Source of the DNA: Marinoscillum sp.
GTDB taxonomy: Bacteria > Bacteroidota > Bacteroidia > Cytophagales > Cyclobacteriaceae
Direction: 5' to 3'
DNA length: 64,000 nt
Assembly (NCBI GenBank): GCA_024305105.1
Contig: JAMWZA010000004.1
Location: 7,876 to 71,875, forward strand
Shown here: piece after piece, positions 1 through 58,706 of the stretch
How the letters are laid out: each line of letters starts with the position of its first letter
Numbering within the stretch: position 1 is the stretch's first letter
Notes under the pieces: model-generated
The model's input: the letters and a program-made list of their open reading frames with translations, nothing else
Told to the model about the DNA's origin: nothing
The model's database searches: none
Program-made: the position numbers and the translations under genes

Positions 1-572
1 TTAGTCCCTTTAGCTGCCTGCCAATAGCACCAGGGAAACTCCCCATTGGTCACATTTCTTTTCTCCCCGCTCTCGCCAAGAGGAGTCGTTTGAAATTTAT
101 AGTAGGCGTCCCAAGCCTTAGGGTCTTCATGGCTTGGATCTTTGTCATGAAAGGTCTTACCAATCCCTATGGTCTCAAAACCATTTTGCTTGAACAGGTA
201 GGGCAACGTGGGCTTATCACCCAATACCGACTGTAATGGCGTTACATTATCTAAAATCCCCAGGGTTTCCGGTCTCAATCCTGTCAAAAAAGACGATCTG
301 CTAGGTCCGCAAACTGCAAAATTACAATAGGCACGATTGAACTGAACACCCGATGCAGCAAGTCTGTCAATGTTGGGAGTAATCGCCAGGGTATCTCCGT
401 AAGTTCCCAGTGTCGGCTTGAGGTCATCTACGATGATCATTAGGACATTCTTATCCTTTGGTTGATCCGAATCATCCTGGCCTTGACTGCTACTCTGACA
501 CCCCAGCAACCAAAGAGTGCCAAATAGTATCAAAAAGAAATAAGACCGTCGTATAAGTATCGAATTTATCAT
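1..572 (-). CDS. S1 sulfatase, N-terminal part (runs off the left edge); probable lipoprotein, iduronate-2-sulfatase-like
   Basis: Manual translation from ATG at 572: MINSILIRRSYFFLILFGTLWLLGC...KNVLMIIVDDLKP...TPNIDRLA...CNFAVCGPSRSSFLTG...GKTFH. Has the CxPxR motif and an LLGC lipobox. Not in the ORF track. Confidence 0.9.
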   Translation of the reverse strand, partial: MINSILIRRSYFFLILFGTLWLLGCQSSSQGQDDSDQPKDKNVLMIIVDDLKPTLGTYGDTLAITPNIDRLAASGVQFNRAYCNFAVCGPSRSSFLTGLRPETLGILDNVTPLQSVLGDKPTLPYLFKQNGFETIGIGKTFHDKDPSHEDPKAWDAYYKFQTTPLGESGEKRNVTNGEFPWCYWQAAKGT

Positions 573-639
573 AACTTATTTAATAAGGTTAATTTTTCTA
601 CCATCGTAATTATCACGTCACCAATCGACTATACGCCTA

Positions 640-1575
640 TCACATCGTGGGTAACTCCAAAGCCACTTTTTCCCACATCGTCTCTTCATATAATCTGGTA
701 CTCCCCACTAACGCAAGTTCTTCCGTCTGATCACTAAAGGTGATTTTTACTGATACTCCATGACTATTTAACTCCTCCTCCAGGTGTCTTTTGAACAAGT
801 CAGCAGACTGGGAGATATTGCCACCAAAGCAAAGACAAGTCGGCTGGAACCTTTTTACCCATGGAGCAATTAGCTGTCCCATGTTATGTCCAAACCTGGC
901 AAATATTTCCTGTGCATGCTGATGTTTTCGTGCAGCTGCAGCAAGTGACTTTACACCATTTACTTTGACTCCATACTTCGTTTCACTTTCTTGCATGAAC
1001 CAACGAGTAGAAAAGTAGTCATCGACTATCCCTTCTTGAAATGGAAGATGCCAAAAACAGCCGTGCTCAGGCACATTCCTGTCACTGACAATAGGTACAC
1101 CACCCTTCATGAATGCAGATCCAATCCCTGTGCCCAGTGTAAAGCAAATAGACCGCTCATGTTTTTGAGCCTCCCCTTTCCAGCAGGCACCAATGGCAAA
1201 CGCGGTGGCATCATTGATGTACCGCATTGGTAACGGAGTATTCAAGCTCAACCTGTCAGATACTTCTTCAGTGATATTTAGGTTGTACAACGCATCGTAC
1301 TTGCCATTTCCCTGAAATAGTGCAATGCCATTTTTATAATCAAATGCACCTGGCATGGCAAAGGAAATTCCCAGAATATCTTCCAATTTGGCTTTATTCA
1401 TTACGCTCTTAATAGGCAAAACCCATTTCTTTAGCACATCATCAGCACTTGCTCCAGAATCGATGCGAAAATACTTGACCGTGTCGGGAACAATATCGCC
1501 AGCAGTCGTGACTAAGGCTGCCGATATATGACCACCTCCAACTTCTACTCCAATAATAAACTTTTGATTCTCCAT
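640..1575 (-). CDS. ROK family sugar kinase
   Basis: GVEVGGGHI, GISFAMPGAFDY, YINDATAFAIG and TLGTGIGSAF are typical of Bacteroidota ROK kinases. No CxCGxxGC zinc motif and no HTH. Confidence 0.85.
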   Translation of the reverse strand: MENQKFIIGVEVGGGHISAALVTTAGDIVPDTVKYFRIDSGASADDVLKKWVLPIKSVMNKAKLEDILGISFAMPGAFDYKNGIALFQGNGKYDALYNLNITEEVSDRLSLNTPLPMRYINDATAFAIGACWKGEAQKHERSICFTLGTGIGSAFMKGGVPIVSDRNVPEHGCFWHLPFQEGIVDDYFSTRWFMQESETKYGVKVNGVKSLAAAARKHQHAQEIFARFGHNMGQLIAPWVKRFQPTCLCFGGNISQSADLFKRHLEEELNSHGVSVKITFSDQTEELALVGSTRLYEETMWEKVALELPTM

Positions 1576-1606
1576 ATTTATTTAATCAATGTTATAATTA
1601 GTAAAG

Positions 1607-1653
1607 TAACTAGCAAAGTCTCACTGGATATCCAGTGAGGTCTTTGCTAGTTA
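1607..1653 (-). terminator. Long hairpin after the giant gene; terminator or mRNA stabiliser
   Basis: 12-bp outer stem taactagcaaag/ctttgctagtta encloses the perfect palindrome ctcactggatatccagtgag (1620-1639). It begins 8 nt after the stop codon. Confidence 0.7.
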
Positions 1654-1660
1654 TAGCTGG

Positions 1661-4600
1661 TTATTCAATAATAATTCTCTTGGCCACACTTTGATTGCCA
1701 GCTTGTACCTCGATCAAGTGCACACCCGACTTCAGGTACTCAACAGGGATTCTGTATCGGGTATTCGGCTGATCAAATTTTTGATCCAGCACTTTCACCC
1801 CTGCCATGTTGTACACAACTACTGATACCCCTTCTGTTGCCTCTGAACCTAACTCGATGGTCACAAACTCTGAAACCGGATTAGGGTAGATTTTCGTTTC
1901 CTTGATGGACAACTCCTGGAAATCCAACGAATTGGATGTTCTGGCACCTCCGTTGCTCACTAATTTGATGGCATCAATTCGGTTGGTCACCGATCCGGAT
2001 TTGGAATTGTAGATTCGGAACCAATTGATGGCATCCAGATCCGGTGTGCCTCCTGTTGTGCTCGCTGAGCTAACGTCCAGACTAACGAAATTCCAACCAC
2101 TTGAAAAACTGGTTAGGTTCCAGTGATACTCGTTTTGATCTGGTTGACCTCCGCTACCAAGTTCCACCTGGTTGCTGGATGTACTCATTTTAGAAGGATC
2201 AGATACATAGTACCAAAACTCTAAACGCGCATTCGAAGGTGTAAGACCTGAGACATATACTGGACTGAATACTTTATTAAACTCATTCGTACCAGACCCA
2301 ATGATTTTAACGCTATTGGTGCCCTGCTTGACAGTACCGCTTAGCACCAGATTATTAGACCCGGAGGAATTCCAACCAGTCAGCGCATCACAGTCATCCA
2401 GGAAGTTGTTGGGATCAAGAACCGTGATACTCACATTTCCTGATTGGTCACCAAACCACTCTACATTGTCCTGAACCATCTTCCACTGGAAATTGTAGGT
2501 ACCAGCTACCGACGGTGCAGTGATGTCAAAAGTGAAGGTTTTCTGAGCATTCGGACTGATGTTATCAGAATCATCCAACCAGACTCTATTCATTCCCCAG
2601 TCCGTATTGTCCTGCTCATTCTGACTTCCCAACTTGTACAGGTCAGCCTTGGTCCAGGAAGATGTTCCCGTATTCTTCATAGTCACACTCACAGTAGCCG
2701 TCTGACCGATATTAAGCGCAGTTGGCACTCCACTATTGGAGATAAATTGAGCTCCATTTTGAATGGACTGATAGTTGGCCGTAATGGTGGCCGTACCTGA
2801 AGGCATGGTCAGTGTAGTGCTGGAGGCATTCACATCTGCTATAGATGGACTTCCAGAGTCCACGGTCCAGCTAGTAAACACCTGTCCGGCCGGCGCAGCA
2901 TTGGCTGTGATATTCACTGTGGCTCCCGGAGCATAGCTTCCGCTTCCACTTCCGCTGTTCACCACCAGTGCATAGGTACTGGTCACGTAATTAGCTGTCA
3001 CCGAAACATTATTCGCACCCATCGTCAAAGTGGTGGATGAGGCAAGTAGATCTGCAATGGTAGCATTCCCGGAATCTATTGTCCATGAGTCAAACTCCTG
3101 TCCGGAAGGTGCCGCATCTGCGACAATGCTTACCGACTGGTTATACGTGAAGGTTCCGCCCCCGCTACCACTATTCACTGTTAATGAATAATCGATATTG
3201 CGATAAGTAGCCGTCACTTCGGCATTAGTAGCACCCATGGTCAGGTTGGTACTAATGGCATCCGGATCTACGATGCTCGGGGACCCTGAATCAATAACCC
3301 AGGCATCAAATTCCATACCTGTCGGTGCAGCGTTGGCCACTATGCTCACATCTGCTCCAGAAACATAAGAACCTGAACCTGAACCACTATTTACAATCAG
3401 CTCATAGTCAATATCCTTATAGGTAGCACTGATCGTCGCCCCACTATTGTTGATTGTTGCGGTGGTATTCGCTGCATTTTGGTCCGCAAAAAGGATCGTA
3501 CCGGCATCAATCGCCCAGATGTCAAACTCCTTGCCAGATGGTGGTGCATCAGCTACGATGTTCACATTGGTTCCGTCTGCATAACTGCCATCACCACTAC
3601 CACTGTTAACTGTTAGCTGATAGTTCACTCCTCCACTCGGATCAATGAGTTGAATCGCGTCAATTCGTGTGGTAATCGAAGACGATTTGAAATTGTACAA
3701 TCTAAACCAATTGATGGCATTGATATCCGGCGATCCAATCTTACTTGCTTCGCTAAGATTCAGATCAACCAAGTTCCATCCATCAGACAATGGCGGTAGG
3801 CTCCAATTATATTCCAACGAATCTGATTGTCCTGCACTACCTAGCTCCACTTGATTATTTCCTGTAAGCTGAGAAACATCAGAGACATAGTACCAAAAAC
3901 GTAATACAGCATCTGTCTCATTCAATCCTCCATTGTAGGCTGGACTAAACACCTTCTGAAACTCCATCTCCGTGGCTCCAATAAACTCTAGACTTCCAGT
4001 CCCTTGTTGTTTTTCTGTGCTTACTGTGATGGTTTGAGAGGAACCCCAACTGGTCGTGGCGTCACACTCGTCCAGGTAATTGGAGAGGTTTCCTACGGTC
4101 ACAATGACATTTTCCGTGGTGGCTCCAAACCATTCCACTTCATCCTGCACCATTCTCCATTGGAAATTGTATACCCCTGCGTTAGCTGGAGCTGAGGTGT
4201 TAAATGTAAAAGTCACTTCTTCATTTGGAGATACGCTATCACTTGCTGTTAGTTCTATCCGAGTAGACCCCCAATTATTGTTATCCTGGATATTCTGACT
4301 TCCCAGCTTGTACAGATCAGCTTGAGTCCAGGTGGTATTACCAGTATTCTTCATTGTGACTGTCGCCGTAAACGATTCACTTACATCAAGAGACGAAGGA
4401 ACGCTTTGAGAGACGAAGACTGCTCCATTTCCATTGATAGATGGTGTGATGGGGATGGTCGCTGACATTGGTATAGTACCATCCAGCATTTGCTGTGTGG
4501 CATCCGCCAATTGCAAATACCAGTCACTAGGCAAACTTTCCTGATCTTCGTCGAGAGTGACCATGGTAGACTTCAGGCCTACGGGTAAGTCAGCCTCTGT

Positions 4601-7600
4601 CTCTGCAATCTTAAACATTGCTGTACCTTCGTCTACTTCATCAAACATGGCTACATAGATGAAATCAGAACCTGCATCTATGGCATTGTAAGCTTGTTTC
4701 CAGTAGAAATCACCACCATATCTAGGATGTTGGTTGAACGTGCCTCCATGTAAGTTTAGCCAGGAGAATCCGGGCCATATGACCGGCATATAATCCACAC
4801 CATTGGTATTACAATCCGCCAAATCCGGAACAATCTTGGTGGTCTTCCAATTATCCACTCCAGTATTGCCATATCGACCTACCGTCCATGGCGAAATCAT
4901 ATCCAGGGAATGATACACAGAGGTCCACCCGCTTCCGGTTTCTGAATCCCCGGAAAGGGTTTGCCAACCGCTAGGTACTCCTCCAACCACATACATTCCA
5001 TGTGTATTCCTGAAATAGTCGATGAGAGATTGGAAAGTCGCAGTGGTAAGTCCTCTATCCTTAAATCCGATACCCCATATTGCAATAACCGGTTTACCAT
5101 TCTGATGGACATACTCTGGTGCATTTAGAATATCAAAGGTATCAATCAAATACTCCCAGTCATCAGTGATTTTAGTGAGCAAGGTTCCATCATCGGCTAC
5201 ACCTGAAACATCATACATGATCGAGAATTTGCGATCATACTCTGTCGAAGCTGATATCACATTTTCCAGCACATCATTTCGAACCTGGAAGAATCGATTG
5301 TCCTGTACTTCTCCCAAAAAGCGCTGTAAATAAACGCCGTGAACGTTATAATCTTGCATCCACTCAAAGTGTTTGCGTGTGGTGCTCAGGTCATGAGAAG
5401 AAAACAATGCCGCATTCGTACCATCAGAGTAGGTCATGTTGGTATTATGAGTATCCGTGTATTCCGACATATCGGGCCACATGTCCACCCCAATGTTGGC
5501 TGCAGAAGGATCTGTTCTTCCGGCACTGTTGAACCAGTGGCGCCATTCATTCGGTGTGGAGTTATCTGACTGTGCCAGGAACCATCCTTGATAGCCCATC
5601 ATCAGTTTATGTGTCAACTGATCCTGATCCGGTGCTGCCGTAACGGTAACTACCTTATTGGTAGACTGCTCACCAAACCACTCTACCATATCCTGTACCA
5701 TTCGCCATTGGAAATTGTATGTTCCAGCGGCACTTGGTGCTGTAATGGTGAAGGTGAACGCTTTTTGCTGACCAGGTGCAATCTCTTCCCCCTCCTCAAG
5801 CTCTACACGTTGAAAACCCCAGTCTGGATTATCCTGTGGATTTTGGCTTCCCAACTTATGCAGATCAGTTTTTCTCCATGTAGTCTGCCCGGTGTTGCTC
5901 ATCACTACAGTTACTTCCACTGAATCACCTGCCACCATCGTAGATGGCACTATTTGCGAAACAAAAGATGCTGCGTTCGTAAGATTGGTAGCAGTAAAAG
6001 TAGCAGTAATGGATACGTCTGATGCTCCCATCACCATGGTCGTACTACTTGCATTGGCATTCGTGATAGTTGGCGAACCTGAATCCACTACCCACTGGTC
6101 AAACACCTGACCCGGAGGTGCTGCATCAGCACTGATATTAACCGTGGCATCATGAGCATAATCTCCATCACCAGATCCATTGTTGACCACTAGGGTATTT
6201 GGCGAACAGGTACCTTCCTGAACTCCGCAACCACACTCACCCGGGCTCGATTTGTCAGGATCGTTCGGGCAATCATCCGTAGAAAGTGGCAATGTCGCCC
6301 AATCTACATCATAAGCTGGCCCATTGATCTCTTTGACCAGTGCCAGGGTTGGATCACCTATTCCATCGATATATCCCGTTTGAAGTTGTCGGGTACTATT
6401 ATCCTCTACATTGATGTACTGGATGACCACTCTTGGAGGGTTGTCCAATACATGAAACTCCATATATCCGTGAGTGGAACCTGTGTGACACACAGAACCG
6501 GTATTATAATGTACTGCTCCATTTGGATAGTTGACATTATATTGAGGGTAGCGCTCAAACGTATGAATGGTAGCTGAAAGACAAATATCCGCCGTAGATA
6601 ACAGCAAATTTTTTCGATAAGAATTGAAATTCGCTTCTTTCACAAAATCACCACCTCTACTATGGGCAATAACGATGATAATATCCTTATTGGTTTTTAA
6701 AGGTGCGAGTGAATCAAGCTTTTGCTGCATAAATGCTCTGGACTCCTCCTTAAAGGCAACACTGGCACTAGAAGGCTGATCAGAAAAGTGAAGCTGGATT
6801 AAGTGTATTTTAAATCCACTGTTTTGGAAATGTGCATAATAATCCACCTTATTCGGCTGCATGTCTACATTGCTGCGCCCAAAGAAGTTGTCTACATAGT
6901 TAAAAAGCGGCCAACCAGATCCCCAGTCATCTTGTCCGCTACCAAATGCCTGATTTTCACCATCAGCAATATTCGGATAGAAGTTGGTTTTCCAATAGCT
7001 GTCGTTTTGAATAAACGATAGAAAAGGATCATTTCCGTTTGAATTTACAAGATGATCTCCAGCACCGATCACAAACTCAGATCCACGGACCCAGGCATCC
7101 ATTCGCTGCATGCTGGTCAGGGATTTAGAAGCTGTGGCTGATAGCGGGCTATCCCCCTTATTATCACTCATTAGCGAAAATCGAAAAAGAGATCCATTGT
7201 CCAAATCCTCGATGCTGCTCACTGTGTAATCTGCTGAGGGGTCAACGACCTGAATTCCGTCAATCCTGGTAGTGACACTTCCTGATTTGACATTGTATAT
7301 TCTAAACCAGTCGATCGCATTGAGGTCGGGATTACCGCTGACTGAGGCTTCGCTAATGCTAAGGCTGATAAAGTTCCAACCATTTACCAGACCAGACAGG
7401 CTCCAGTGGTATTCATCCACATCCGCCTGACCGCCACTTCCGAGTTCCACTTGATTGGAACTGCCCATGACTGCAGCGTTGGATACGTAATACCAAAATT
7501 CTAATTTGGCATGAGTGGGGTTGGCTCCAGAATTGTATGGAGTGAATACTTTACGAAACTCGTCGGTTTGGCTCCCTACAAATTGAATGGAATGATCACT

Positions 7601-9229
7601 TTGTTTGGACGTAGAGCTCAGACTAAGCGATCCTGATGACGTCCACCCTGAGAGTGACTCGGCATCATCGAGAAAGTTGTAATCCCCGGCGGTAAAATTG
7701 ACCGGGCTAGATTCCTTGCTATTGCCCTGATCGTCTGTTGCCACTGCTTTAAGCGTGTAGCTTCCGTCCGTTGGGATAGCGTAAGAAACTGAATATGGGG
7801 CTGTATTGTCAGTAGCTATGAGTTGATCATTGCTATAAAATGCTACAGAGGCAACCGTACCATCACTATCGGAGGCTGTGGCATCAACATTAATGGTGGG
7901 TAATCCTTCAAAGTAACTACCATCTGCCGGAGAAATAATCGACACTACTGGCAGGGCTACATTGTTGTTTTGAATAGTGACCACTGAACCATTTGACGGG
8001 TTCCAGATGTCAAGATTACTTGGTATGGAAAATGGATTGGCGTTTGAGTTCTCCCCTACAGAAGTAGCGTTGTCCAGTTTGATTGTTCGAACTTCGATTT
8101 TGCTCTGATCCACAAAAATCCACTTAAACTGGTTAAAATTTCCTGAATTACGAGTCCATGATTTGTCGTCATCATTGGTCCTGTTGGGAGCTCCCCAGCA
8201 ACCTTCCCCTACATAAACGGTTCCATTAGCATCATCACGAATAAAACCTTCGTCGTTGCCACTGTTTGTAGATGGAATTACTGGCCAGGTGGTTTTAACG
8301 GTGTGCGCATCGCATTCTACCACGAGCTTTACGTTGTAGTCATAAAACTTCTGTGCCCAGCTATTGTACTGGCCATTTTGCTCTGGCTTACCAGCCACAT
8401 GTGGCCTTATTGGCTTGTGGTACTGAGCTGTTTTCCAGGTAACAAAGTCATTGGCTGTCAGATCATTGAGCAACCATGATTCCTGATTTCCATTCACAGC
8501 AATTTCGGTATTGAGTGTATAGGCCCTGATCAACGAGCCTCCGAAAGTCAATGCATAATAAACACTCGAATTATTCCTCGGCGTATCAAACAAGTGATAG
8601 ATGTAATCATCATTGGTTTCGTGATTTCCTCGGGCAGCCACAACAGGATACATTCTACCATCATTGCTAATGGTTAGCTGCCAGTCATCAAACCACTCCT
8701 GCCACTCGGTATTCGAACAGGTATTGGTCATGTCACCGCCAAACAATACCGCGTGAGGTTTTAATTTACTCACCAGTCTGTTACCGTTTTGACGTGGTGT
8801 TCGGTTGTTTCTGGAATCACCACCTGCGATAAAAGAAAGCCGTTCGGTCGGAACATTGGGTGCCGTCTTAAACCAAAACCTGGAGCTGGTGCTGTTAGAA
8901 TCCTTAATTACAAAATAGTAGGCAGTATTTGGTTGAAGTCCCGTTAATCTCGCAAAGTGATTGTCCATACCCGCAAAACCAACGCTTCTGGAAGCGCCTA
9001 GTGAATTGGGGTAACTGGCCCAATCGGTTCCCTGATCCACGGTGCCATAATATACGGTCACACCGGATCCGTCTATTTGATTCCAGCCGATTACTATGGA
9101 GGTGGCCGGATTATCCCTAAGAGTGAGTCGATACTTATCTGTAGATGCAGATAATCCCAATGATAGCAAGAGCGCCATCAATAACAGGGGGTATTTGTAT
9201 TTCATAACATTATCATTTAAGGTTATCAT
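1661..9229 (-). CDS. 2522-aa T9SS-secreted multidomain enzyme: purple acid phosphatase-like, second metallophosphoesterase-like and GH99/GH71-like domains plus repeated Ig/beta-sandwich modules
   Basis: Signal peptide (likely start MKYKY at 9205). PAP motifs GGDSR, GGDMTN, RGNHE, YHKP, ECDAH. GH99/71-like motifs MMGYQGWF, LQRF, IAIWGIGF, SPWTVGRY, WPGFSW, AMFDEVDEGT. C-terminal IYPNPV...KRIIIE sorting domain. Confidence 0.85.
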   Translation of the reverse strand: MITLNDNVMKYKYPLLLMALLLSLGLSASTDKYRLTLRDNPATSIVIGWNQIDGSGVTVYYGTVDQGTDWASYPNSLGASRSVGFAGMDNHFARLTGLQPNTAYYFVIKDSNSTSSRFWFKTAPNVPTERLSFIAGGDSRNNRTPRQNGNRLVSKLKPHAVLFGGDMTNTCSNTEWQEWFDDWQLTISNDGRMYPVVAARGNHETNDDYIYHLFDTPRNNSSVYYALTFGGSLIRAYTLNTEIAVNGNQESWLLNDLTANDFVTWKTAQYHKPIRPHVAGKPEQNGQYNSWAQKFYDYNVKLVVECDAHTVKTTWPVIPSTNSGNDEGFIRDDANGTVYVGEGCWGAPNRTNDDDKSWTRNSGNFNQFKWIFVDQSKIEVRTIKLDNATSVGENSNANPFSIPSNLDIWNPSNGSVVTIQNNNVALPVVSIISPADGSYFEGLPTINVDATASDSDGTVASVAFYSNDQLIATDNTAPYSVSYAIPTDGSYTLKAVATDDQGNSKESSPVNFTAGDYNFLDDAESLSGWTSSGSLSLSSTSKQSDHSIQFVGSQTDEFRKVFTPYNSGANPTHAKLEFWYYVSNAAVMGSSNQVELGSGGQADVDEYHWSLSGLVNGWNFISLSISEASVSGNPDLNAIDWFRIYNVKSGSVTTRIDGIQVVDPSADYTVSSIEDLDNGSLFRFSLMSDNKGDSPLSATASKSLTSMQRMDAWVRGSEFVIGAGDHLVNSNGNDPFLSFIQNDSYWKTNFYPNIADGENQAFGSGQDDWGSGWPLFNYVDNFFGRSNVDMQPNKVDYYAHFQNSGFKIHLIQLHFSDQPSSASVAFKEESRAFMQQKLDSLAPLKTNKDIIIVIAHSRGGDFVKEANFNSYRKNLLLSTADICLSATIHTFERYPQYNVNYPNGAVHYNTGSVCHTGSTHGYMEFHVLDNPPRVVIQYINVEDNSTRQLQTGYIDGIGDPTLALVKEINGPAYDVDWATLPLSTDDCPNDPDKSSPGECGCGVQEGTCSPNTLVVNNGSGDGDYAHDATVNISADAAPPGQVFDQWVVDSGSPTITNANASSTTMVMGASDVSITATFTATNLTNAASFVSQIVPSTMVAGDSVEVTVVMSNTGQTTWRKTDLHKLGSQNPQDNPDWGFQRVELEEGEEIAPGQQKAFTFTITAPSAAGTYNFQWRMVQDMVEWFGEQSTNKVVTVTAAPDQDQLTHKLMMGYQGWFLAQSDNSTPNEWRHWFNSAGRTDPSAANIGVDMWPDMSEYTDTHNTNMTYSDGTNAALFSSHDLSTTRKHFEWMQDYNVHGVYLQRFLGEVQDNRFFQVRNDVLENVISASTEYDRKFSIMYDVSGVADDGTLLTKITDDWEYLIDTFDILNAPEYVHQNGKPVIAIWGIGFKDRGLTTATFQSLIDYFRNTHGMYVVGGVPSGWQTLSGDSETGSGWTSVYHSLDMISPWTVGRYGNTGVDNWKTTKIVPDLADCNTNGVDYMPVIWPGFSWLNLHGGTFNQHPRYGGDFYWKQAYNAIDAGSDFIYVAMFDEVDEGTAMFKIAETEADLPVGLKSTMVTLDEDQESLPSDWYLQLADATQQMLDGTIPMSATIPITPSINGNGAVFVSQSVPSSLDVSESFTATVTMKNTGNTTWTQADLYKLGSQNIQDNNNWGSTRIELTASDSVSPNEEVTFTFNTSAPANAGVYNFQWRMVQDEVEWFGATTENVIVTVGNLSNYLDECDATTSWGSSQTITVSTEKQQGTGSLEFIGATEMEFQKVFSPAYNGGLNETDAVLRFWYYVSDVSQLTGNNQVELGSAGQSDSLEYNWSLPPLSDGWNLVDLNLSEASKIGSPDINAINWFRLYNFKSSSITTRIDAIQLIDPSGGVNYQLTVNSGSGDGSYADGTNVNIVADAPPSGKEFDIWAIDAGTILFADQNAANTTATINNSGATISATYKDIDYELIVNSGSGSGSYVSGADVSIVANAAPTGMEFDAWVIDSGSPSIVDPDAISTNLTMGATNAEVTATYRNIDYSLTVNSGSGGGTFTYNQSVSIVADAAPSGQEFDSWTIDSGNATIADLLASSTTLTMGANNVSVTANYVTSTYALVVNSGSGSGSYAPGATVNITANAAPAGQVFTSWTVDSGSPSIADVNASSTTLTMPSGTATITANYQSIQNGAQFISNSGVPTALNIGQTATVSVTMKNTGTSSWTKADLYKLGSQNEQDNTDWGMNRVWLDDSDNISPNAQKTFTFDITAPSVAGTYNFQWKMVQDNVEWFGDQSGNVSITVLDPNNFLDDCDALTGWNSSGSNNLVLSGTVKQGTNSVKIIGSGTNEFNKVFSPVYVSGLTPSNARLEFWYYVSDPSKMSTSSNQVELGSGGQPDQNEYHWNLTSFSSGWNFVSLDVSSASTTGGTPDLDAINWFRIYNSKSGSVTNRIDAIKLVSNGGARTSNSLDFQELSIKETKIYPNPVSEFVTIELGSEATEGVSVVVYNMAGVKVLDQKFDQPNTRYRIPVEYLKSGVHLIEVQAGNQSVAKRIIIE
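1952..7681 (-). repeat. Intragenic domain repeats: three ~148-aa beta-sandwich units, three NBR1-like Ig units, five ~70-aa LxVNxGSG units
   Basis: Beta-sandwich units at aa ~517-664, 1716-1864, 2274-2426 share FWYYVS..NQVELGS.G....EY.W...GWN...WFR.YN. NBR1-like units at aa ~1085-1198, 1601-1713, 2158-2271 share NTG..W...KLGSQN..DN..WG...YNFQW.MVQD.VEWFG. InlB-B-like units at aa ~1012-1080 and 1870-2155. Confidence 0.9.
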
Positions 9230-9765
9230 TTGGTCGTCAATCTTTTGGAGGTGGTGGTTTCTGGTTGTCGAATGAATACTACATAGAGCTATTTTTTTAG
9301 TTGAATAATGATCCTACTTCTTGAGAAGTATTGACTAGTAATCGCAAGTCCTCATGTTGCATTCCTTCCTTCACAACCTGAAAACCGCCATTACCTGAAC
9401 TGTTTAAAATCAGTTCGTTCAGGCACAATCCAATTTTCGCAATGAGCAGTTAATAATTGATTAATGAGTGGTAAAAAATGAATTAATCAGGGTGCTTTTT
9501 TAAAATATTTTAAAAAAAATGCTCATAAGAAAAATGCATTCTATTGAAATTAAAGTGAGATTTATCGCTCCTCTTTCACCTGGTTAATTGGCTTTTTTCA
9601 AACAAATCATTACTTTTAAATAATAGTCCAATACGGAATTGCACTTTCCTTCCTTCAGTCTCCGTTTTTGGTCGCAGAATTAATCAGTCGTTTCAAGGCA
9701 CGTGAATTCCAGCAATCTGGCTACACTTTTTTTTGTGTGTTCCGCCATCTGGGATATGAATTTAT

Positions 9766-10698
9766 ATGTCACACGTAAATAATCGAATCCAAATGGAACG
9801 ACGAAAATTACTTACTCAGGGTCTCCAATTATGTTGCTTTTTTGTCTTTACCGGACGCGCCTGGCAGCATATTGTTTGGGACGCGCCCTATAGAACCCTT
9901 TTATGGGATGAGTCGCTACTCTCCTCTATTGTGCCTTTGTTGACTGGCATGAACTGGAACGAATACGCCACTTCACCTGTAGTAGATCAAATTATCAACG
10001 GACTGATGATTTCGACAGGGATATGCTATCTCTTTATCGGACTGTTTGCTCTGGTAGCACACCAGCCATCAATGCGGAAATTTAGAAAGGTGCTACTATT
10101 TGGTAGTGCATTGTTGTTTGGTCTTGCACTTCTATATTTCAAGGAAAAGTTCTATCAGGTAGGACAACTTTTTGAATATTCGATTCAGTTCGGATCACCA
10201 TTGCTGCTTTATATGGCCTTACAATCCGAATTGAACCAAAAACGACTCCTATTTTTTATGAAAGTGGCCATTGCACTTACTTTTACTTGTCACGGCTTGT
10301 ATGCCTTGGGTTACTATCCACAGCCCGGGAATTTCGTTGCGATGACGATCAACATCCTTCCTGTAGGTGAAGGAACCGCAAGAGGTTTATTAAAAGCGTT
10401 TGGCTGGGCAGATATACTGTTAAGTGTACTGTTATTTATCCCAAAAGCAGCCAGATGGGCGCTCTTGTATGCGGCTATTTGGGGCTTAGCGACTGCTGTG
10501 GCAAGAATTTGGGCCAACGTTCAGTTGGATTTTTTATTCAGCTCGCTCAATCAGTGGTCCTTCGAAACCATCATGAGACTGCCACATGGCATACTACCCC
10601 TCCTCCTGATTAGCCCGCTGAGAGAACACTTCCACATACCTTTTATCCATTTATTTAGCGAATGGCGCGTCAACAAATATGCAGATCAAACCCATTAA
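9766..10698 (+). CDS. Multi-pass membrane protein of unknown function
   Basis: 310-aa ORF with about seven hydrophobic segments and an FTCHGLYA motif. It is the only plausible plus-strand gene. The start may be MERRK at 9793. Confidence 0.7.
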   Translation: MSHVNNRIQMERRKLLTQGLQLCCFFVFTGRAWQHIVWDAPYRTLLWDESLLSSIVPLLTGMNWNEYATSPVVDQIINGLMISTGICYLFIGLFALVAHQPSMRKFRKVLLFGSALLFGLALLYFKEKFYQVGQLFEYSIQFGSPLLLYMALQSELNQKRLLFFMKVAIALTFTCHGLYALGYYPQPGNFVAMTINILPVGEGTARGLLKAFGWADILLSVLLFIPKAARWALLYAAIWGLATAVARIWANVQLDFLFSSLNQWSFETIMRLPHGILPLLLISPLREHFHIPFIHLFSEWRVNKYADQTH

Positions 10699-10768: not shown

Positions 10769-11782
10769 TTAATGTTGATCCGCATAATAACTTTTTACAT
10801 TGGAGAGAAACATCACATATTTTTGATCTGTCACCAATTCCAGCCAGGCCGAGTCATATAGTATCCCCCGATCAATTAATTGACTCAACTCACAAGTCAT
10901 GTAAGCTTCCTTCACCTCTCCGGTTAACTTCGAATCGATCACCTTCAACCTTTTGGCGATTTCTTCTGATCTGGATTTTTTATTGTTCGAATTTTCTTCC
11001 GAATTGAATTCGCTTTGAAAACTAATGTATTGATAAAGGAAACTCATATAATCTCGGTTACCAATCATGTCGTCGTTCTCGATTTTTAAGCCGTTATAGG
11101 GTGCACTGATCACCTCAGCAGTCGCATTACCTTCGAGATTAAGTGTCTTGATCCGGTAGAATACAGCATTCATCTTGTACCAGGCATTCAGATAATCCAT
11201 TCGGGTCTTCTCAAAATCCTTAAACCACCAAACCTGTTCTGGGCCATGGATATCAATGTATTCCTGATGAATTTGAGTGAGGCTATCGTTGAAAGCATAA
11301 ATGGCACTCAGGGCATTTTTTTGGTCTAGCATGAAGTTACTTCTTGCATTACGATCTGAATAATAAGAGTTAAAGTGGCCCGACTTCATTTCTAAAAAAT
11401 CATTCACTTCCTCAAGATTTCCCTGATAGCTGAAGACAAGTTGCTTATTAAGATTCCGGACAATAGTGACTGTATCTACTGAGCCAGGGTGCGCATACAG
11501 GTTAATGTCCTTTTCGTCTACAGACAGGTAATAATCATTTATTCCCTGGGATTTTCTAGATTCAACTCTTACTTCTCCAGGTGCCAAACGGCCCACATCG
11601 TAATTGGCCTTCTCCGGCCAAATAGCGTTATCACGAATTCTAAAATCCAGTGTGTCTTTGGTGTTATTGATCAGACACAGAGAACTCTTTCCTTCCAGGT
11701 CAAATGTCGGTTTTTGGGAATTGTCGCTACATGCAGAAAAGATGATGATACTGATTAACATTCCAATTTGAATAATACGCAT
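10769..11782 (-). CDS. Putative lipoprotein of unknown function
   Basis: Lipobox IIFSAC, a beta-rich N-terminal half and a helical C-terminal half. Loosely resembles the non-catalytic part of Bacteroidota TlpA-like lipoproteins but has no CxxC. Confidence 0.7.
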   Translation of the reverse strand: MRIIQIGMLISIIIFSACSDNSQKPTFDLEGKSSLCLINNTKDTLDFRIRDNAIWPEKANYDVGRLAPGEVRVESRKSQGINDYYLSVDEKDINLYAHPGSVDTVTIVRNLNKQLVFSYQGNLEEVNDFLEMKSGHFNSYYSDRNARSNFMLDQKNALSAIYAFNDSLTQIHQEYIDIHGPEQVWWFKDFEKTRMDYLNAWYKMNAVFYRIKTLNLEGNATAEVISAPYNGLKIENDDMIGNRDYMSFLYQYISFQSEFNSEENSNNKKSRSEEIAKRLKVIDSKLTGEVKEAYMTCELSQLIDRGILYDSAWLELVTDQKYVMFLSNVKSYYADQH

Positions 11783-17094: not shown

Positions 17095-21682
<4,588 letters not shown>

Positions 21683-32391: not shown

Positions 32392-32395
32392 GATC

Positions 32396-53321: not shown

Positions 53322-54714
53322 ATAACCAGGAATGAAATTCTTCCTTCAGCTCGTTAACCAATTTCTGTTTTTTTGAACTTAGGTCCGTAGTTTCACCTAA
53401 GTCTTTACTTAAATCAAATAATTCTATTGACGGGGGGTCATAATGCCCTATTAGTTTAAAATTGCCCTTGCGGATAGCATACCCTGGCATCTTTGCCTGA
53501 GGACTGTAATGAGGATAATACCAGTGAAGTGTTTTTCGATTTAAGGACCCAATGTTTTTTAAAACAGGAATAAGTGAGACCCCATCTACCTGGCCTGCAC
53601 TCGCACCTACCATTTCAGCTATTGTAGGCAGTATATCATCAGTGATGACTAGCTCATCAGTTGATGTAGATTCCTCCACTTCTCCAGGCCATTTCACAAT
53701 CATGGGTATTCTTATCCCCCCCTCATAAAGATAGCCTTTGCCTTCTCTAAGAGGTTTGTTATTGGTTACTTTCCCTTCGCCTCCATTATCACTACTGAGA
53801 ATAACAATGGTATTGTTCGATAACCCCATAGTAGAAATGCTTTCTAAAACACGGCCCACATTCCAATCCATGTTTTCCACCATGGCGCCATAAATGGCGT
53901 TCTTTTGTTCATCTTGACCCTCTATTCTATGCTTATACTTTGCTACCAAAGTATCGGGTGCTTCTAATGGAAGATGTACGGCATAATGGGAAAGGTATAA
54001 GAAAAAGGGACGTTCCTTATTATCACTTATGAATCGGATTGCTTCATTTGTGAGTCTATCAGTTAGGTATTCTCCTGAATCTCTCGGGGAGAGGTTTTTG
54101 ATCACAGGATTCCATGTTTTTTCAGATTGGTAGGGACCCCAATATGTGGGCGGGCTGCCATGCTCATAACCTGCAATATTGGTATCAAAACCCTGATGAG
54201 TTGGGAAATACTTCTCATTATCACCCACATGCCATTTACCTATGCTTGCGGAAGCATACCCTAACCCTTGCAGCATTTCTGGAATCATTGTCTCTTCCAA
54301 AGACACATGCATATAATCATCCGGAGGAACAATTCTTCCTTTTTCAGGATACCTGTGCCGTCCGATTGCGGTAATATGTCCGGTAAACCCCAGATTTACC
54401 GGATTCTTTCCTGTGAGAATACTTGCTCTGGAAGGCGAGCAGACAGGACTTGCGGAATACGCATTGGTAAAAAGCATCCCTTCTCTGCTTAACTGATCAA
54501 TATTGGGGGTATCATAGAATGTGCTTCCATAGCAGCCTAAATCCTTCCATCCCAAGTCATCAATCAATATAAATACCACATTCGGATGACTTTGTCCTTG
54601 AACTTCCAGCAAAGAAGTTGTCAACAATAAGACTATTAAAAAGGACGGTATATGATTTACCTGTTTAACCATTTGCTTAACGTTTGTACAAGTATAAAAT
54701 GGGCTCTCGCTCAC
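53269..54714 (-). CDS. S1 sulfatase (S1_16-like)
   Basis: IDDLGWKD, CSPSRASILTG, GKWHVG, YAVHLP, SSDNGG, WYYPHY. The start is probably downstream of 54714. Confidence 0.92.
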   Translation of the reverse strand: MSESPFYTCTNVKQMVKQVNHIPSFLIVLLLTTSLLEVQGQSHPNVVFILIDDLGWKDLGCYGSTFYDTPNIDQLSREGMLFTNAYSASPVCSPSRASILTGKNPVNLGFTGHITAIGRHRYPEKGRIVPPDDYMHVSLEETMIPEMLQGLGYASASIGKWHVGDNEKYFPTHQGFDTNIAGYEHGSPPTYWGPYQSEKTWNPVIKNLSPRDSGEYLTDRLTNEAIRFISDNKERPFFLYLSHYAVHLPLEAPDTLVAKYKHRIEGQDEQKNAIYGAMVENMDWNVGRVLESISTMGLSNNTIVILSSDNGGEGKVTNNKPLREGKGYLYEGGIRIPMIVKWPGEVEESTSTDELVITDDILPTIAEMVGASAGQVDGVSLIPVLKNIGSLNRKTLHWYYPHYSPQAKMPGYAIRKGNFKLIGHYDPPSIELFDLSKDLGETTDLSSKKQKLVNELKEEFHSWLYGFDPILHSNNLNYENR

Positions 54715-57412
54715 TAATCGTCACATACCCCGAGCCATCACGGAGCCAGGTAATTGCCTCCCCCTGGGGCTCCTCAACATAAGGTAAAGAGGTAACAGAA
54801 CGTGCTAGAGCATCTATAACTGATTCACCTTCACCACGTTTCCAATAGAACACATTGTCCTTGTTTTTTATAAGTATTTCGGATCCATCAGGTGAGATAT
54901 CGCCTCCATTCGTCAATCGAAATGGTAGGGTAACGTTGGACTTGATAAGATTTAGTGTGTCTTCCGTAGGTTGAGGGAATGGCATGGAATAAATCTGCAC
55001 ATGAGTCTCCCGTTTTGTGACAAGATACAATTCTCTGGTCTCAGGGTCTATCATTAGAATTTCGGCATCCCTGGGTCCATCTGCGTAGGTAAATGTGAAT
55101 GAAGAAACCTCACTTTTGGCCAAACTGAGATTTTGATTTAAACTGGTGATATCAACAGCTGGCTCAGCAACCCGGTAAATGTACTTGTACTTGTTATCCG
55201 CGCCATTATCTCCAATGTCGGCAACGTACAGGTAGGACAGTTCCTGATCAGGCCCAGGCCCTAATGTGATGTCCTCCCAGTCTCTGCTTGTAATGTTGTC
55301 AATGGTTATTCTAGCTACAGTTTGTCCATTTTCATTCACCAGGTACACATTGGCATCATCTCCACTATCATTATGTACCCAAAAGTGGTTTGGATATCTA
55401 ACACTTGCAGCAATACCAGATATTTCGTCCAAACGACCATCTGAAAATTCAGTCAAAACTATTCCCATTTCTTCAAAAAACTCAGGTGGATCCATGATGA
55501 GGGTAATGTTCTTTTCAAAGTTATTTCCGACATCTCTCAGGGTGAGCAGTGCCGTGTCACGTTGCATGCTAGAGGGTACCAGAGCGATCTTTTTATTAGG
55601 AAGCACCTCGATATTAAACGCCTTTTCGCTACTCAATTCCCAAGTATATTGAGGTGCATTGGCTCCCTGATAAGTAGATGGATTCAAAGTAAGGTTATCC
55701 TTTGAATAGAAATCTTGAAAGGTGGGATCATCAGTAAAATAGAAATAAGGCCGGCGTACAAAACAGTGTATCGTATCTACTCCATAAATAGCCGTATCCA
55801 CGGCATTTAGGAATACACCCGGTTGTGTGTCAGTGAAACCATTTGCATCATAAGATTCTGTAAATGTCCCATTAACTTCACTATTGGTGTTTCCGTTTAT
55901 GGCTAATGAAACATTTTGTTCACCCTCCCTGTGTAACGATTGATACCTAAGGTTATAAATGCTATAAGAGCGTTTGACAATGTCTGCTTGAATCCTATTG
56001 ATGGCACTTTCCAGCTCGCTATCGTCGCTGATAGGGATGAACCTCTCAGGGCTGACCAGTTTAGGTTTGGTGAAACTATCAGCTATACTATCCATACTAA
56101 TTAAGTACACCCATTTATCACCACGTTCATTAATAACTTCCTCCAGCCACTCACTACTGGCCTGCTCACTGCTGCCAGCTGAAAACACTATTACAGCGCC
56201 CTGTGATACGCTCAAAGGAGCATGTTCGTCCTGCCAACTATTAAGAGCGAGAGGCAGTGACACGGCTAAATTAGATTTCCCTTCATTTTGTGGTTCAATT
56301 CTGCTGATATAATACTCGAGATTAAGTTTATTGTCCATGAAGTGATTAACTAATTCTGCAGAATCCGCATAAGCATAAATAGCTATTTGCTGATTGACTG
56401 CCATTATGTCTACCAAGTGATTGGCTGCCCTTTGGAAAGACTGGAGATGGTCCGTAGTATTTTGACCTCTATCAATAAGTAAAACAGTATTGATAAAAGT
56501 GGATGATTGGTTTGTCTTCTTGATGCTTAGAAAAGTAGCTTCCGGAGAGGCAGGTTCGCCATTTTCGTAAACAACAAAGTCCTCACCATCTAAAAAGTCT
56601 ACTCCTCCTTTGTGCCTGTCTGTAACTGTAAACCAAGCATTGACCAAGCCTGGTATATGTGATTGAAAATCGACATTGCTAAAGGCAAAGTGTCGGTCTT
56701 CAAACTCAAAAGAATAATTTTTACTCCTGTAAAGGATATCATACTCCGTGTCTATATGTAAGCCAGAATAAGCGTTAAAATGGAGTATGTCTCCAATAGT
56801 CATTTCCAATTCGTTACTAGTTGCTCGATGGATTGTTTTTGCCTGAAGACCTGTTGTGGTATCGTCGACCTCAACAGCTTGTAACCCAAAATAAGTAATG
56901 TCTGCCACCTCTCCACTTCCTTGGGTACACTGCATCCGATAAGTCTTAACAGACAGTCCGTTTGTTACTTTCAACAGATAAATACCTACCAATCCAACCT
57001 CTATTTGAAACGTATTCTTCCCCTTAGATGCATACTGTGTTCTCCTGATTAGTTGTCTGCCGGAAAGGTCAAAAACAGCTAGACTAATTGGTCCGGAGAC
57101 CTCACTAACCCACTCAAAGCTTGTGGATTTACTAAATGGGTTCGGATATAAGTAGGACTCTAAATATACCCTTGATGACAAAACTTGCTCAGACAACGTG
57201 TCTGGTGAATCTGTCTCAAAAATGATATCATAATAATCCGACTCAATAACCTTTGAATACCCATTTGTTAAATTTGTGATCTTCACGCTATCGAGTGCCT
57301 CAGAAGACCCGAATGTAAGCCGAATATTCTCCTGTGCGGATAGTGAAAACGAACAGATTATAAACCCGATGACAGTGAAGGGGTTTATCTTAGATAACAT
57401 CAGCTGTATCAT
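54677..57412 (-). CDS. Secreted protein with an internal T9SS-CTD-like domain, a degenerate vWA domain and a C-terminal beta-propeller
   Basis: aa 87-161 YLYPNPF...VFDLSGR...GIYLLKV; aa 307-490 vWA-like (TVLLIDRGQN, AVIVFSAG); from aa ~650 EISGIAAS..WVHNDSGD..DWEDI..LYVADIGDN..EPQGEAI. Confidence 0.7.
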   Translation of the reverse strand: MIQLMLSKINPFTVIGFIICSFSLSAQENIRLTFGSSEALDSVKITNLTNGYSKVIESDYYDIIFETDSPDTLSEQVLSSRVYLESYLYPNPFSKSTSFEWVSEVSGPISLAVFDLSGRQLIRRTQYASKGKNTFQIEVGLVGIYLLKVTNGLSVKTYRMQCTQGSGEVADITYFGLQAVEVDDTTTGLQAKTIHRATSNELEMTIGDILHFNAYSGLHIDTEYDILYRSKNYSFEFEDRHFAFSNVDFQSHIPGLVNAWFTVTDRHKGGVDFLDGEDFVVYENGEPASPEATFLSIKKTNQSSTFINTVLLIDRGQNTTDHLQSFQRAANHLVDIMAVNQQIAIYAYADSAELVNHFMDNKLNLEYYISRIEPQNEGKSNLAVSLPLALNSWQDEHAPLSVSQGAVIVFSAGSSEQASSEWLEEVINERGDKWVYLISMDSIADSFTKPKLVSPERFIPISDDSELESAINRIQADIVKRSYSIYNLRYQSLHREGEQNVSLAINGNTNSEVNGTFTESYDANGFTDTQPGVFLNAVDTAIYGVDTIHCFVRRPYFYFTDDPTFQDFYSKDNLTLNPSTYQGANAPQYTWELSSEKAFNIEVLPNKKIALVPSSMQRDTALLTLRDVGNNFEKNITLIMDPPEFFEEMGIVLTEFSDGRLDEISGIAASVRYPNHFWVHNDSGDDANVYLVNENGQTVARITIDNITSRDWEDITLGPGPDQELSYLYVADIGDNGADNKYKYIYRVAEPAVDITSLNQNLSLAKSEVSSFTFTYADGPRDAEILMIDPETRELYLVTKRETHVQIYSMPFPQPTEDTLNLIKSNVTLPFRLTNGGDISPDGSEILIKNKDNVFYWKRGEGESVIDALARSVTSLPYVEEPQGEAITWLRDGSGYVTISEREPILYLYKR

Positions 57413-57461: not shown

Positions 57462-58706
57462 TCAGTTGGTTTTCGGGTCCCATATTGTTGCATGGATTTG
57501 TCCTTGTCGCTCCTTGGTAGAATAATAAAATATAGCCACCATTTTACCATCTGATCTGGTAATGACACGCGGATAGCCCAAATCATTTAATTCCATATCC
57601 TCAGACCAGAAAGCATCGTACAAAATCTGAGGCTCGCTCCAGGTACGTCCTTCGTCTGAACTATATGCAATTTGTATCGTTCCTTCGTCGCGCTCACCAT
57701 AGACAGCACACAGCCTGCCATCTTGCATTAGTGCCAAAGCAGGCGGATTCCCATTACCACTTCCAGCATCGCCCACTTGTGATTGAAATGTCCATGTCTT
57801 CCCTCCATCAGTTGAAGCATAGGCGTCTACCCAATTTCTACTTTTTACTCCTTTTCCAGAATACTTTCTGCGCATAACTGTAAGCATCTTCCCATCAGAA
57901 AGCAAAAACGATTCAGACATTACTGCACGACATTGTGTAGACCATGGGTTTAAGGATTCATCATCATAGAGTGGCACCTTAACTGCACTCGCTACTTCAT
58001 CAGCATGGAAGGGCTTCACCACCCAACCGTGAAACTGAAAGGTTTTCCCTCCATCTGTAGTTTTGATACAGAACAACCGATCCTTGGCAAATTTGCCTTT
58101 AGGCCTGGCAGACATAAAAATAATGCACTCCTTTTTACCCAGAATGATGTAATCAGTCCGTGGAGTAATCTCAACTTCATCCCAATATTTTTTGAGCTCT
58201 GGATGATTCTGAAAATCTCCAAAGGTGTGAGGTCCTCTCCATTTCTTACCACGATTCGTCGTATAAAAAAAATGTCCTCTTGGGTCTTCCGCTCCGTGAT
58301 ATGCAGTACCTACTACCCGCATTGCAAAACCATTTTGCGTGAAATCAACCTCCTTTTTGAGATCAGTCAGTTCTGGTTGATCTCCAAAATCACCTACATA
58401 GTTTTTTGGGTTCCATGCTTTCCAGGTGAGGCCTCCATCATTACTACGTGACAACCAACTTGTTTGATCTTCACCCAGATTATGCCCCTCTTGAAGTACA
58501 TACTCCGCCTCTGTAAAGCCAACCAAAATATTATCTCCATCAAAAATCCATGCACCATTATTGGCCGGCCAACCTGCAAAACGGCCTTGCTGATGGTATG
58601 CAACTGCCTGTTCAGCTCCTTGTACCTCCTTTAATTGCTGCGCGTCCACACTCCCAATTGCAATCAGTGTACAAACTATTAGTAATCTGTTCTTGATATG
58701 TTCCAC
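57462..58706 (-). CDS. BNR/Asp-box beta-propeller protein (sialidase-fold, activity unknown)
   Basis: Five Asp boxes: SNDGGLTW, TTNRGKKW, TTDGGKTF, STDGGKTW, SSDEGRTW; DLGYP near the C-terminus; no F/YRIP. Confidence 0.8.
   Translation of the reverse strand: MEHIKNRLLIVCTLIAIGSVDAQQLKEVQGAEQAVAYHQQGRFAGWPANNGAWIFDGDNILVGFTEAEYVLQEGHNLGEDQTSWLSRSNDGGLTWKAWNPKNYVGDFGDQPELTDLKKEVDFTQNGFAMRVVGTAYHGAEDPRGHFFYTTNRGKKWRGPHTFGDFQNHPELKKYWDEVEITPRTDYIILGKKECIIFMSARPKGKFAKDRLFCIKTTDGGKTFQFHGWVVKPFHADEVASAVKVPLYDDESLNPWSTQCRAVMSESFLLSDGKMLTVMRRKYSGKGVKSRNWVDAYASTDGGKTWTFQSQVGDAGSGNGNPPALALMQDGRLCAVYGERDEGTIQIAYSSDEGRTWSEPQILYDAFWSEDMELNDLGYPRVITRSDGKMVAIFYYSTKERQGQIHATIWDPKTN

Follow-up and report, generated by a model that had tools for sequence, protein, structure and literature searches.

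A secreted Marinoscillum protein carrying two metallophosphoesterase-fold domains and a GH195-family glycosidase domain on one polypeptide

The stretch of DNA analysed here (the window) comprises 64,000 nucleotides from Marinoscillum sp. (contig JAMWZA010000004.1, positions 7,876 to 71,875) and contains an open reading frame (ORF) of 2522 codons on the minus strand (1661..9229). It codes for a secreted polypeptide with three enzyme-fold domains and 13 non-catalytic beta-sandwich or immunoglobulin-like (Ig) modules. The question raised by this locus is why two phosphoesterase-like domains and a glycosidase-like domain occur on one exported protein, and whether they act on the same substrate. 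A sequence-only reading had known of no described polypeptide that joins such domains. With respect to phosphoesterases this claim stands, since no literature was found on a phosphatase or metallophosphoesterase with mannan loci. However, uncharacterised orthologues occur in public databases under generic names, and a fusion of a sulfatase to a GH195 glycosidase has been published, so that the principle of an esterase in tandem with GH195 is already known (2026). What is new here is that the sulfatase is replaced by two phosphoesterase-fold domains, one of which belongs to an undescribed family.

The long ORF could be confirmed as genuine. Its internal repeats share only 60-77% identity at the DNA level, nt 2000-9145 are spanned by one exact contig from the source run, and single contigs from two further isolates (ca. 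95% nucleotide identity) are collinear over nt 1-9285. Given the low identity of the repeats and the collinear contigs, a misassembly, which had been named as a possible refutation, is ruled out. In the orthologues P0146 and P0147 the start lies 8 residues further on, at the equivalent of M9 (nt 9205), so that the true product probably has 2514 aa. A strain with 98% identity has the full three-enzyme architecture, and so does Marinoscillum furvescens, where the orthologue has 2525 aa (72% identity, 100% coverage). The orthologue from Reichenbachiella ulvae is shorter (2181 aa) and has fewer spacer modules, and it retains all three enzyme domains. A search for RNA runs returned none. Thus, this is a real, conserved, secreted multi-domain protein of approximately 2,500 residues.

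The glycosidase-like domain (domain B, aa 1200-1600) is encoded at 4430..5632, on the minus strand like all modules of the protein. An AlphaFold model based on a homologue alignment (pLDDT 90.9) represents a (beta/alpha)8 fold, and Foldseek returned GH99 enzymes as the best match (E 6e-16, TM 0.67/0.75). The GH71 enzymes Agn1 and AnGH71C reach a TM of only 0.44-0.45 and there is no GH71 Pfam match, so that domain B was not assigned to GH71. The sequence signal for GH99 is faint as well. The Pfam profile PF16317 scores 21.3 bits at a cut-off of 33 and gives no match in the whole-protein scan. A search of the domain B sequence against the PDB returned nothing, and the domain B profile returned just a marginal GH99 match.

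A better assignment was provided by GH195, a CAZy family described in 2026 as distantly related to GH99 (PMC13063451). Its founder PbSulf1-GH195 (Pb1059) is an enzyme from Polaribacter, exported by the type IX secretion system (T9SS), in which an S1_51 sulfatase is fused to the GH195 domain (PMC13063451). As a comparator we used L003:671-4918 from a Polaribacter metagenome-assembled genome, which was located via an exact match of the Pb1060 cloning primer from the supplement of that paper. The gene upstream of the primer match encodes a sulfatase, a GH99-like domain, a beta-helix and a C-terminal sorting domain (CTD), and the Pb1059 reverse primer nearly matches, with 3 mismatches, a site just ahead of the CTD. 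Because an exact match to L003 was found for the Pb1060 primer only and not for the Pb1059 primers, this comparator is a positional orthologue of Pb1059 and not the deposited sequence. Domain B shares 39% identity with it over 400 aa (E 2e-80), and the family profile of domain B scores 398 bits on the L003 protein compared to 18-20 bits on classical GH99 proteins. From these scores, together with the sub-threshold Pfam result and an identity to GH99 of only about 15%, it follows that GH195 is a sister family and that domain B is not a GH99 member. The putative catalytic pair E1531/E1534 (motif FDEVDEGT, nt 4628-4639) is invariant in 35 homologues and aligns with E329/E332 of BtGH99 (FNEWHEGT). 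By homology, domain B belongs to the GH195 family and keeps the predicted Glu-x-x-Glu pair. The domain had been labelled GH99/71-like from the sequence, which is correct for the fold with respect to GH99; the resemblance to GH71 is far weaker, and the family is GH195.

Relatives of domain B are numerous (at least 3907, across many phyla). Most are free-standing proteins of 400-700 aa which carry the name "GH71/99-like" at NCBI. In metagenomes, GH195-like genes were found at over 545 loci, and soil samples account for many of these. In a set of such loci (L014-L090), most of the genes are 41-51% identical to domain B and come from soil or rhizosphere according to the record names. The GH195-like family is probably much wider in habitat and substrate than its marine founders imply.

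The middle part of the protein carries a domain that could be recognised by structure prediction (domain A, aa 676-984, 6278..7204). The AlphaFold model of aa 676-960, based on a homologue alignment, has a pLDDT of 91.9 and, as predicted, the four-layer alpha/beta sandwich of calcineurin-like metallophosphoesterases. It matches UshA, Rv0805, purple acid phosphatases (PAPs) and SMPDL3 in the PDB, with E-values down to 6e-9 and a TM of 0.5-0.62. There are 115 structural matches at E<=1e-3, and the 50 matches listed are nearly all metallophosphoesterases, including GpdQ and Mre11. A second phosphoesterase-like domain had been read from the sequence at ca. 6395-7192, and per-domain modelling had been proposed as a check. 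Modelling indeed yields a metallophosphoesterase fold for domain A, as it yields a GH99-like fold for domain B. The location was correct, but the end has to be moved to approximately aa 984 because the final strands are common to the free-standing homologues.

Sequence comparison gave a different picture. No Pfam match to domain A is obtained even at E<=10, neither sequence nor profile searches find a PDB entry, and the alignment of domain A with the PAP-like module by hhalign is not significant (probability 0.2), so that the sequence gives no grounds for calling domain A a phosphoesterase. Within its family, D689, K691, D725, H726, N759, H809, H814, D817, H856, T887 and H889 are conserved. 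In the model, D689-x-K691, GD725-H726, N759, H856 and T887-x-H889 follow the strands in the order of the classical motifs DxH, GD, GNH[DE], H and GHxH. Five of the seven canonical ligand positions are kept, and additional His and Asp residues are invariant. The family is rare, with 25 word-indexed hits and 154 clusters among 1.84 billion representatives, and its members are mostly secreted and 300-470 aa long. Elsewhere, relatives of domain A are fused to Metallophos or Pur_ac_phosph_N domains, to a 5'-nucleotidase C-terminal domain, or to PA14/F5-8C lectin-like domains. In three proteins (P0298, P0305, P0369), domain A and PAP-type modules occur in one polypeptide.

The N-terminal module (aa 30-425, 7955..9142) consists of an FN3-like N-domain and a PAP-like metallophosphoesterase, as delimited by Pfam and a family profile. 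Both Pfam domains score above their cut-offs: Pur_ac_phosph_N (aa 32-122, PF16656) with 46.4 bits (cut-off 30) and Metallophos (aa 151-304, PF00149) with 29.3 bits (cut-off 21.5). The family profile finds wheat PAP (6gja) with an E-value of 2.5e-10; GNHE and the His of motif IV are in register, and D-x-H is set against GHVH. The putative metal ligands are D138, D166, N202 (H203), H271, D307 and H309. Five of the seven canonical ligands are unchanged (D138, D166, N202, H271, H309), and a sixth is replaced by Asp: an invariant Asp307 takes the place of the first His of GHxH throughout the family. The chromophoric Tyr is absent, and its position is variable in the family, so that the set of seven ligands typical of true purple acid phosphatases is incomplete. 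Judged from this motif pattern, the module is PAP-like, of a subfamily found in bacterial T9SS cargo, rather than a true purple enzyme. A binuclear metal site is plausible.

In run X7, a second locus with similarity to these two domains was noticed on a contig from a related isolate (record positions 63442-65878), outside the window and about 51 kb to the left of position 1. It contains short pieces that are identical to parts of the PAP-like module and of domain A and that have the same spacing. This suggests that a paralogous protein extending from a PAP-like module to domain A is encoded elsewhere in these genomes.

The enzyme domains are embedded in a scaffold of repeated modules. Modules were placed by Pfam and NCBIfam scans, repeats by self-comparison, and domains A and B by structure models. 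The module order given in the sequence-only reading was reproduced by the two profile collections, with NCBIfam adding nothing to Pfam apart from the CTD. A signal peptide MKYKYPLLLMALLLSLGLSAS was read from the sequence (9143..9205). The PAP-like module is followed by a Big_7 Ig domain (aa 427-513, 7691..7951; Pfam match at aa 427-495) and by the first copy of a beta-sandwich (aa 514-675, 7205..7690), which precedes domain A. A Cys/Asp linker DDCPNDPDKSSPGECGCG (aa 985-1002, 6224..6277), also read from the sequence, connects domain A to the first of five InlB B-repeat-like units (Flg_new_2; aa 1005-1085, 5975..6217). The first of three NBR1-like Ig domains (N_BRCA1_IG; aa 1086-1200, 5630..5974) leads to domain B. 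Behind domain B, the second NBR1-like Ig domain (aa 1600-1715, 4085..4432) and beta-sandwich copy 2 (aa 1715-1875, 3605..4087) are followed by the other four InlB B-repeat-like units (aa 1875-2165, 2735..3607), for which DNA self-comparison gave a period of 216 nt. The third NBR1-like Ig domain (aa 2165-2275, 2405..2737) and beta-sandwich copy 3 (aa 2276-2445, 1895..2404) complete the scaffold.

The three beta-sandwich copies (ca. 160 aa each) are true internal repeats with a mutual identity of 49-59%; they have no match in Pfam, and none in the PDB by profile search. The Cys/Asp linker resembles a thrombospondin type-3 calcium-binding repeat, with Pfam TSP_3 not detected in it. It is present in the M. 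furvescens orthologue and has been lost from that of R. ulvae. At the C-terminus, a T9SS type A sorting domain (aa 2446-2522, 1664..1894) is recognised above cut-off by PF18962 (Por_Secre_tail, 46.7 bits) and by TIGR04183 (41.1 bits), with the match covering aa 2447-2522. Together with the signal peptide, this identifies the protein as T9SS type A cargo. A Pfam scan finds no sulfatase domain in the protein, and phosphoesterase-fold domains stand in its place. The modules seem to be exchangeable. In P0149 (1644 aa, from a metagenome), a PAP-like module of 77% identity is linked to the same NBR1/InlB/beta-sandwich/CTD scaffold and both domain A and GH195 are missing. Two unrelated, unannotated inserts are found at their sites (aa ca. 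411-615 and ca. 726-947), which is evidence of a cassette-like exchange as far as can be judged from the sequences.

Having placed the domains, we looked at the genes that accompany the orthologues and relatives. In R. ulvae, the neighbours of the orthologue are three genes for GH92 alpha-mannosidases, MFS (major facilitator superfamily) transporters and a sulfatase. Just downstream of the M. furvescens orthologue is a small Metallophos gene, and a sulfatase gene also follows the orthologue. A homologue of this small Metallophos gene occurs in a metagenomic polysaccharide utilisation locus (PUL), L008:1-19166, which contains SusD, two GH99 genes, a sulfatase, GH92 and a GH195-like T9SS protein. 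In this PUL a Metallophos gene is found on either side of the GH195-like gene (282 aa and 706 aa), the small one being the homologue. The locus is well suited as an equivalent of the window protein in which the domains are not fused. A relative in L007 also sits in a PUL. In two further cases a Metallophos gene is found directly upstream: in L032 of two GH195-like genes, and in L066 of a gene that combines a D-mannose-binding lectin domain, TSP3 and a GH195-like domain, with a true TSP_3 repeat ahead of the latter. The closest free-standing homologue of domain A is encoded directly after two GH92 genes, and one operon has the order Metallophos, GH99, sulfatase, domain A homologue. In Haloferula, a PAP-like module has been fused independently to GH92.

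Taken together, we propose with moderate confidence that the protein is a T9SS-exported multi-enzyme, bound to the surface or released, which would attack an anionic alpha-mannan, with the phosphoesterase-fold domains acting before GH195 or assisting it. The central GH195-family domain would be the endo-acting cutter of the backbone. The PAP-like module and domain A would act first on the same chain and clear away ester groups that stand in the way of the mannanase; phosphate mono- or di-esters, for instance mannose-6-phosphate, are the most likely ones. The thirteen beta-sandwich and Ig modules would space the catalytic domains and probably bind glycan. This order of action is modelled on the Polaribacter enzyme, where the C6-sulfate must be removed by S1_51 before GH195 can cut diatom alpha-1,3-mannan (PMC13063451). 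Architecture, predicted folds, family assignments, conservation across genera and gene neighbourhoods are what the analysis shows. We infer catalytic competence, substrate, phosphate as the leaving group and order of action from these comparisons, and for phosphate it is only the predicted fold and the motifs that point to it. A candidate for the natural substrate can be named: diatom biosilica has yielded mannose-6-phosphate, and the presence of a phosphorylated mannan, as yet unidentified, has been proposed for it (reviewed in PMC11733937). The more specific version, in which a phosphodiesterase and a phosphomonoesterase strip a phosphorylated alpha-mannan, such as the one suspected in diatom biosilica, for GH195, so that the protein would be the first equivalent of the sulfatase-GH195 tandem that is specific to phosphate and domain A would found a new enzyme family, we consider unlikely. 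As to the sequence-only reading, its scheme of de-esterification followed by cleavage of an anionic alpha-glycan is partly supported, by the mannan link and by the tandem precedent in Polaribacter; phosphate as the ester is deduced from fold and motifs, and a teichoic-acid-like target found no support.

A number of observations weigh against the proposal and have to be set against it. In the window, the gene is not part of a mannan PUL and there is no GH92 gene. Another possible reading is that the protein is a multi-tool for unrelated substrates. Dissolved organic phosphorus (nucleotides, extracellular DNA, other esters) would then serve the PAP-like module and domain A as a source of phosphate, GH195 would separately cut a mannan, probably sulfated, and the fusion would share only the T9SS export signal and the surface scaffold. 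Hundreds of T9SS proteins lacking a glycosidase contain the PAP-like module. One of them, from Winogradskyella, is encoded next to the gliding and adhesin genes SprB and PorP and lacks a glycan context. The 5'-nucleotidase C-terminal domain on some relatives of domain A indicates nucleotides rather than glycans as substrate. P0149 has the PAP-like module and the scaffold without the other two enzymes, and the S1 sulfatase genes directly downstream of orthologues could perform the de-esterification for GH195. Furthermore, fusion partners need not share a substrate, as is evident from another giant mosaic (L013:4919-11932, at least 2338 aa, ending at the contig end). It joins a GH195-like domain with 63% identity to domain B to pectate-lyase-like, F5/8C, CBM6/35, GH16, Calx-beta and CBM9 modules, and thus also illustrates that GH195-like domains recur in multi-catalytic giants. 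Against such a multi-tool stands the order of the three enzyme domains, which both genera share at 72% identity. On unrelated contigs, Metallophos genes occur inside GH99, GH92 and GH195 loci, the nearest homologues of domain A adjoin GH92 or GH99 genes, and the fusion of the PAP-like module to an alpha-mannosidase family in Haloferula arose independently. On balance, we regard the multi-tool as somewhat unlikely.

The preferred reading, de-esterification and cleavage of one alpha-mannan, also depends on the nature of the glycan and on the chemistry of the phosphoesterase folds. The assignment of domain B to the alpha-mannan-cleaving type is supported by homology; an identity of 39% to the characterised clade is no guarantee of specificity. 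The target of this GH195-like clade might be an alpha-linked glycan of another kind, for example an alpha-glucan or an exopolysaccharide from bacteria, and the phosphoesterases would then match that polymer. The wide distribution of the family, with many loci from soil, fits such an assumption, and GH71 alpha-1,3-glucanases are also structural neighbours. Among 80 metagenomic GH195-like loci, many from soil, only 4 have GH92, 3 a sulfatase and 3 a phosphoesterase in the neighbourhood, which are similar frequencies. Most of the loci thus have neither GH92 nor a sulfatase nearby, and a family-wide association between GH195-like genes and phosphoesterases was rejected, the pairing being only sporadic. 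On the other hand, the R. ulvae orthologue and the closest relatives have GH92 genes as neighbours, one family member carries the mannose-binding lectin domain, and two active GH195 enzymes which are only 36% identical to each other have the same specificity (PMC13063451). A substrate other than mannan thus appears clearly improbable to us. It is also conceivable that one or both of the phosphoesterase-fold domains are not phosphatases: domain A might have lost catalysis and, as a pseudo-enzyme, bind sugar esters of anionic type, or the metal centres might hydrolyse sulfate esters and so replace the S1_51 sulfatase. Domain A is a phosphoesterase by its predicted fold only, without detectable sequence relationship to known ones, and two canonical ligand positions are substituted (His to Lys691 and His to Thr887). 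Sulfatase genes abound in the genomic surroundings, and GH195 has a single proven substrate, a sulfated one that is cleaved only after desulfation (PMC13063451). However, the other ligand positions and the extra His and Asp residues of domain A are invariant also in free-standing members with a signal peptide, a pattern typical of enzymes, and the PAP-like module has a nearly complete binuclear site. No sulfatase is known to have the metallophosphoesterase fold. We consider this last alternative very unlikely.

The protein is of interest irrespective of the outcome. GH195 was defined on one substrate with an essential appended sulfatase and is here joined to another class of ester hydrolases, and this pairing is repeated in gene neighbourhoods of unrelated bacteria. 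Should the glycan be the substrate of the phosphoesterases, phosphorylated alpha-mannans would be a marine source of carbon and phosphorus, and both elements would be recovered from one polymer. This would provide a handle on the phosphorylated mannan that is suspected in diatom silica walls and has never been characterised, and would assign a first function to the rare phosphoesterase-fold family of domain A. If not, the window protein still exemplifies T9SS cargo that is built from interchangeable catalytic and scaffold modules.

The immediate neighbours of the gene were also compared. A ROK-family sugar kinase or regulator is encoded 85 nt downstream on the same strand (640..1575, minus strand), and no terminator-like site was found between the two genes. 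The sequence-only reading had assumed that the enzyme feeds this kinase. No ROK gene is found within 10 kb in M. furvescens, and in R. ulvae the ROK gene is 4 kb away and only 32% identical. As the adjacency is not conserved in either genome, a functional link was rejected. Two other genes, located upstream, are syntenic with the large gene in all three genomes, those of M. furvescens and R. ulvae included. One codes for a multi-pass membrane protein of 310 aa (9766..10698, plus strand, divergently oriented) with a sub-threshold DoxX_3 match and 68% / 55% identity to its counterparts in L001 / L002. The other codes for a putative lipoprotein of 337 aa (10769..11782, minus strand) which has no Pfam match and is 54% / 44% identical in these loci. 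These two proteins may be functionally tied to the large one.

Further into the window follows a large sulfatase-rich PUL (12282-58706) with eleven ORFs of the S1 sulfatase family. It contains a SusD/SusC pair (30844-35491), a hybrid two-component regulator (37617-41606), a GH2 beta-galactosidase (18473-21649) and PF11790 glycosidases (12282-13691 and 29438-30814), together with a SASA esterase, an FGGY kinase and several unannotated T9SS cargo proteins. With no GH92 gene, it is apparently aimed at another sulfated glycan than the large gene. Its SusC/SusD pair, at 30.8-35.5 kb, is the one nearest to the large gene, and L001 and L002 have none within 10 kb. We rejected the assumption that the large gene is part of this PUL, because in the other two genomes the neighbours are different and the gene travels with the conserved gene pair described above. 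Within the PUL, ORF 54677..57412 (minus strand) has a T9SS sorting-domain match at residues 88-154 and is located immediately downstream of a BNR-repeat ORF (57462..58706, minus strand). A frameshift or a wrongly set start seems to separate the BNR protein from its own sorting domain. The ORFs 52314-53321, 53269-54714 and 54677-57412 overlap by 38-53 nt.

The three enzyme domains can finally be compared to their closest known counterparts. For domain B, the best structural matches are GH99 enzymes (BtGH99, 4acy; BxGH99, 6zj6; human MANEA, 6zdf), from which it differs by its sequence as a GH195 domain and with which its catalytic motif aligns. The N-terminal module shares the FN3-like N-domain and the core with purple acid phosphatases such as the wheat PAP phytase (6gja) and kidney-bean PAP, with the motifs GD, GD, GNHE, H and x-H in register, whereas the chromophoric Tyr and the first His of GHxH are not retained. 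UshA-type 5'-nucleotidases and calcineurin-like phosphoesterases (1ush; Rv0805, 3ib7; SMPDL3) are the top structural matches of domain A among those listed; unlike the UshA type, the domain A copy of the window protein has no nucleotide-binding C-domain, in addition to its changed ligand positions and unrelated sequence. For yeast mannan, Cuskin et al. (2015) reportedly described the phosphatases BT2630/BT3783 of Bacteroides thetaiotaomicron loci, which strip mannose-6-phosphate alongside GH92 and GH99 enzymes. These are said to be separate periplasmic proteins of the endonuclease/exonuclease/phosphatase fold, neither metallophosphoesterases nor fused to a glycosidase.

The nearest system as a whole is PbSulf1-GH195 from Polaribacter sp. 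Hel1_33_78 together with OpGH195 from Ochrovirga pacifica (PMC13063451, Microbiome 2026). Like PbSulf1-GH195, the window protein is a T9SS-exported protein of the Bacteroidota with an N-terminal ester-hydrolysing domain (here by fold), a GH195 domain and a C-terminal sorting domain. It differs in having two metallophosphoesterase-fold domains instead of the S1_51 sulfatase, and in being about 1100 residues longer, with 13 extra non-catalytic modules in place of the beta-helix.

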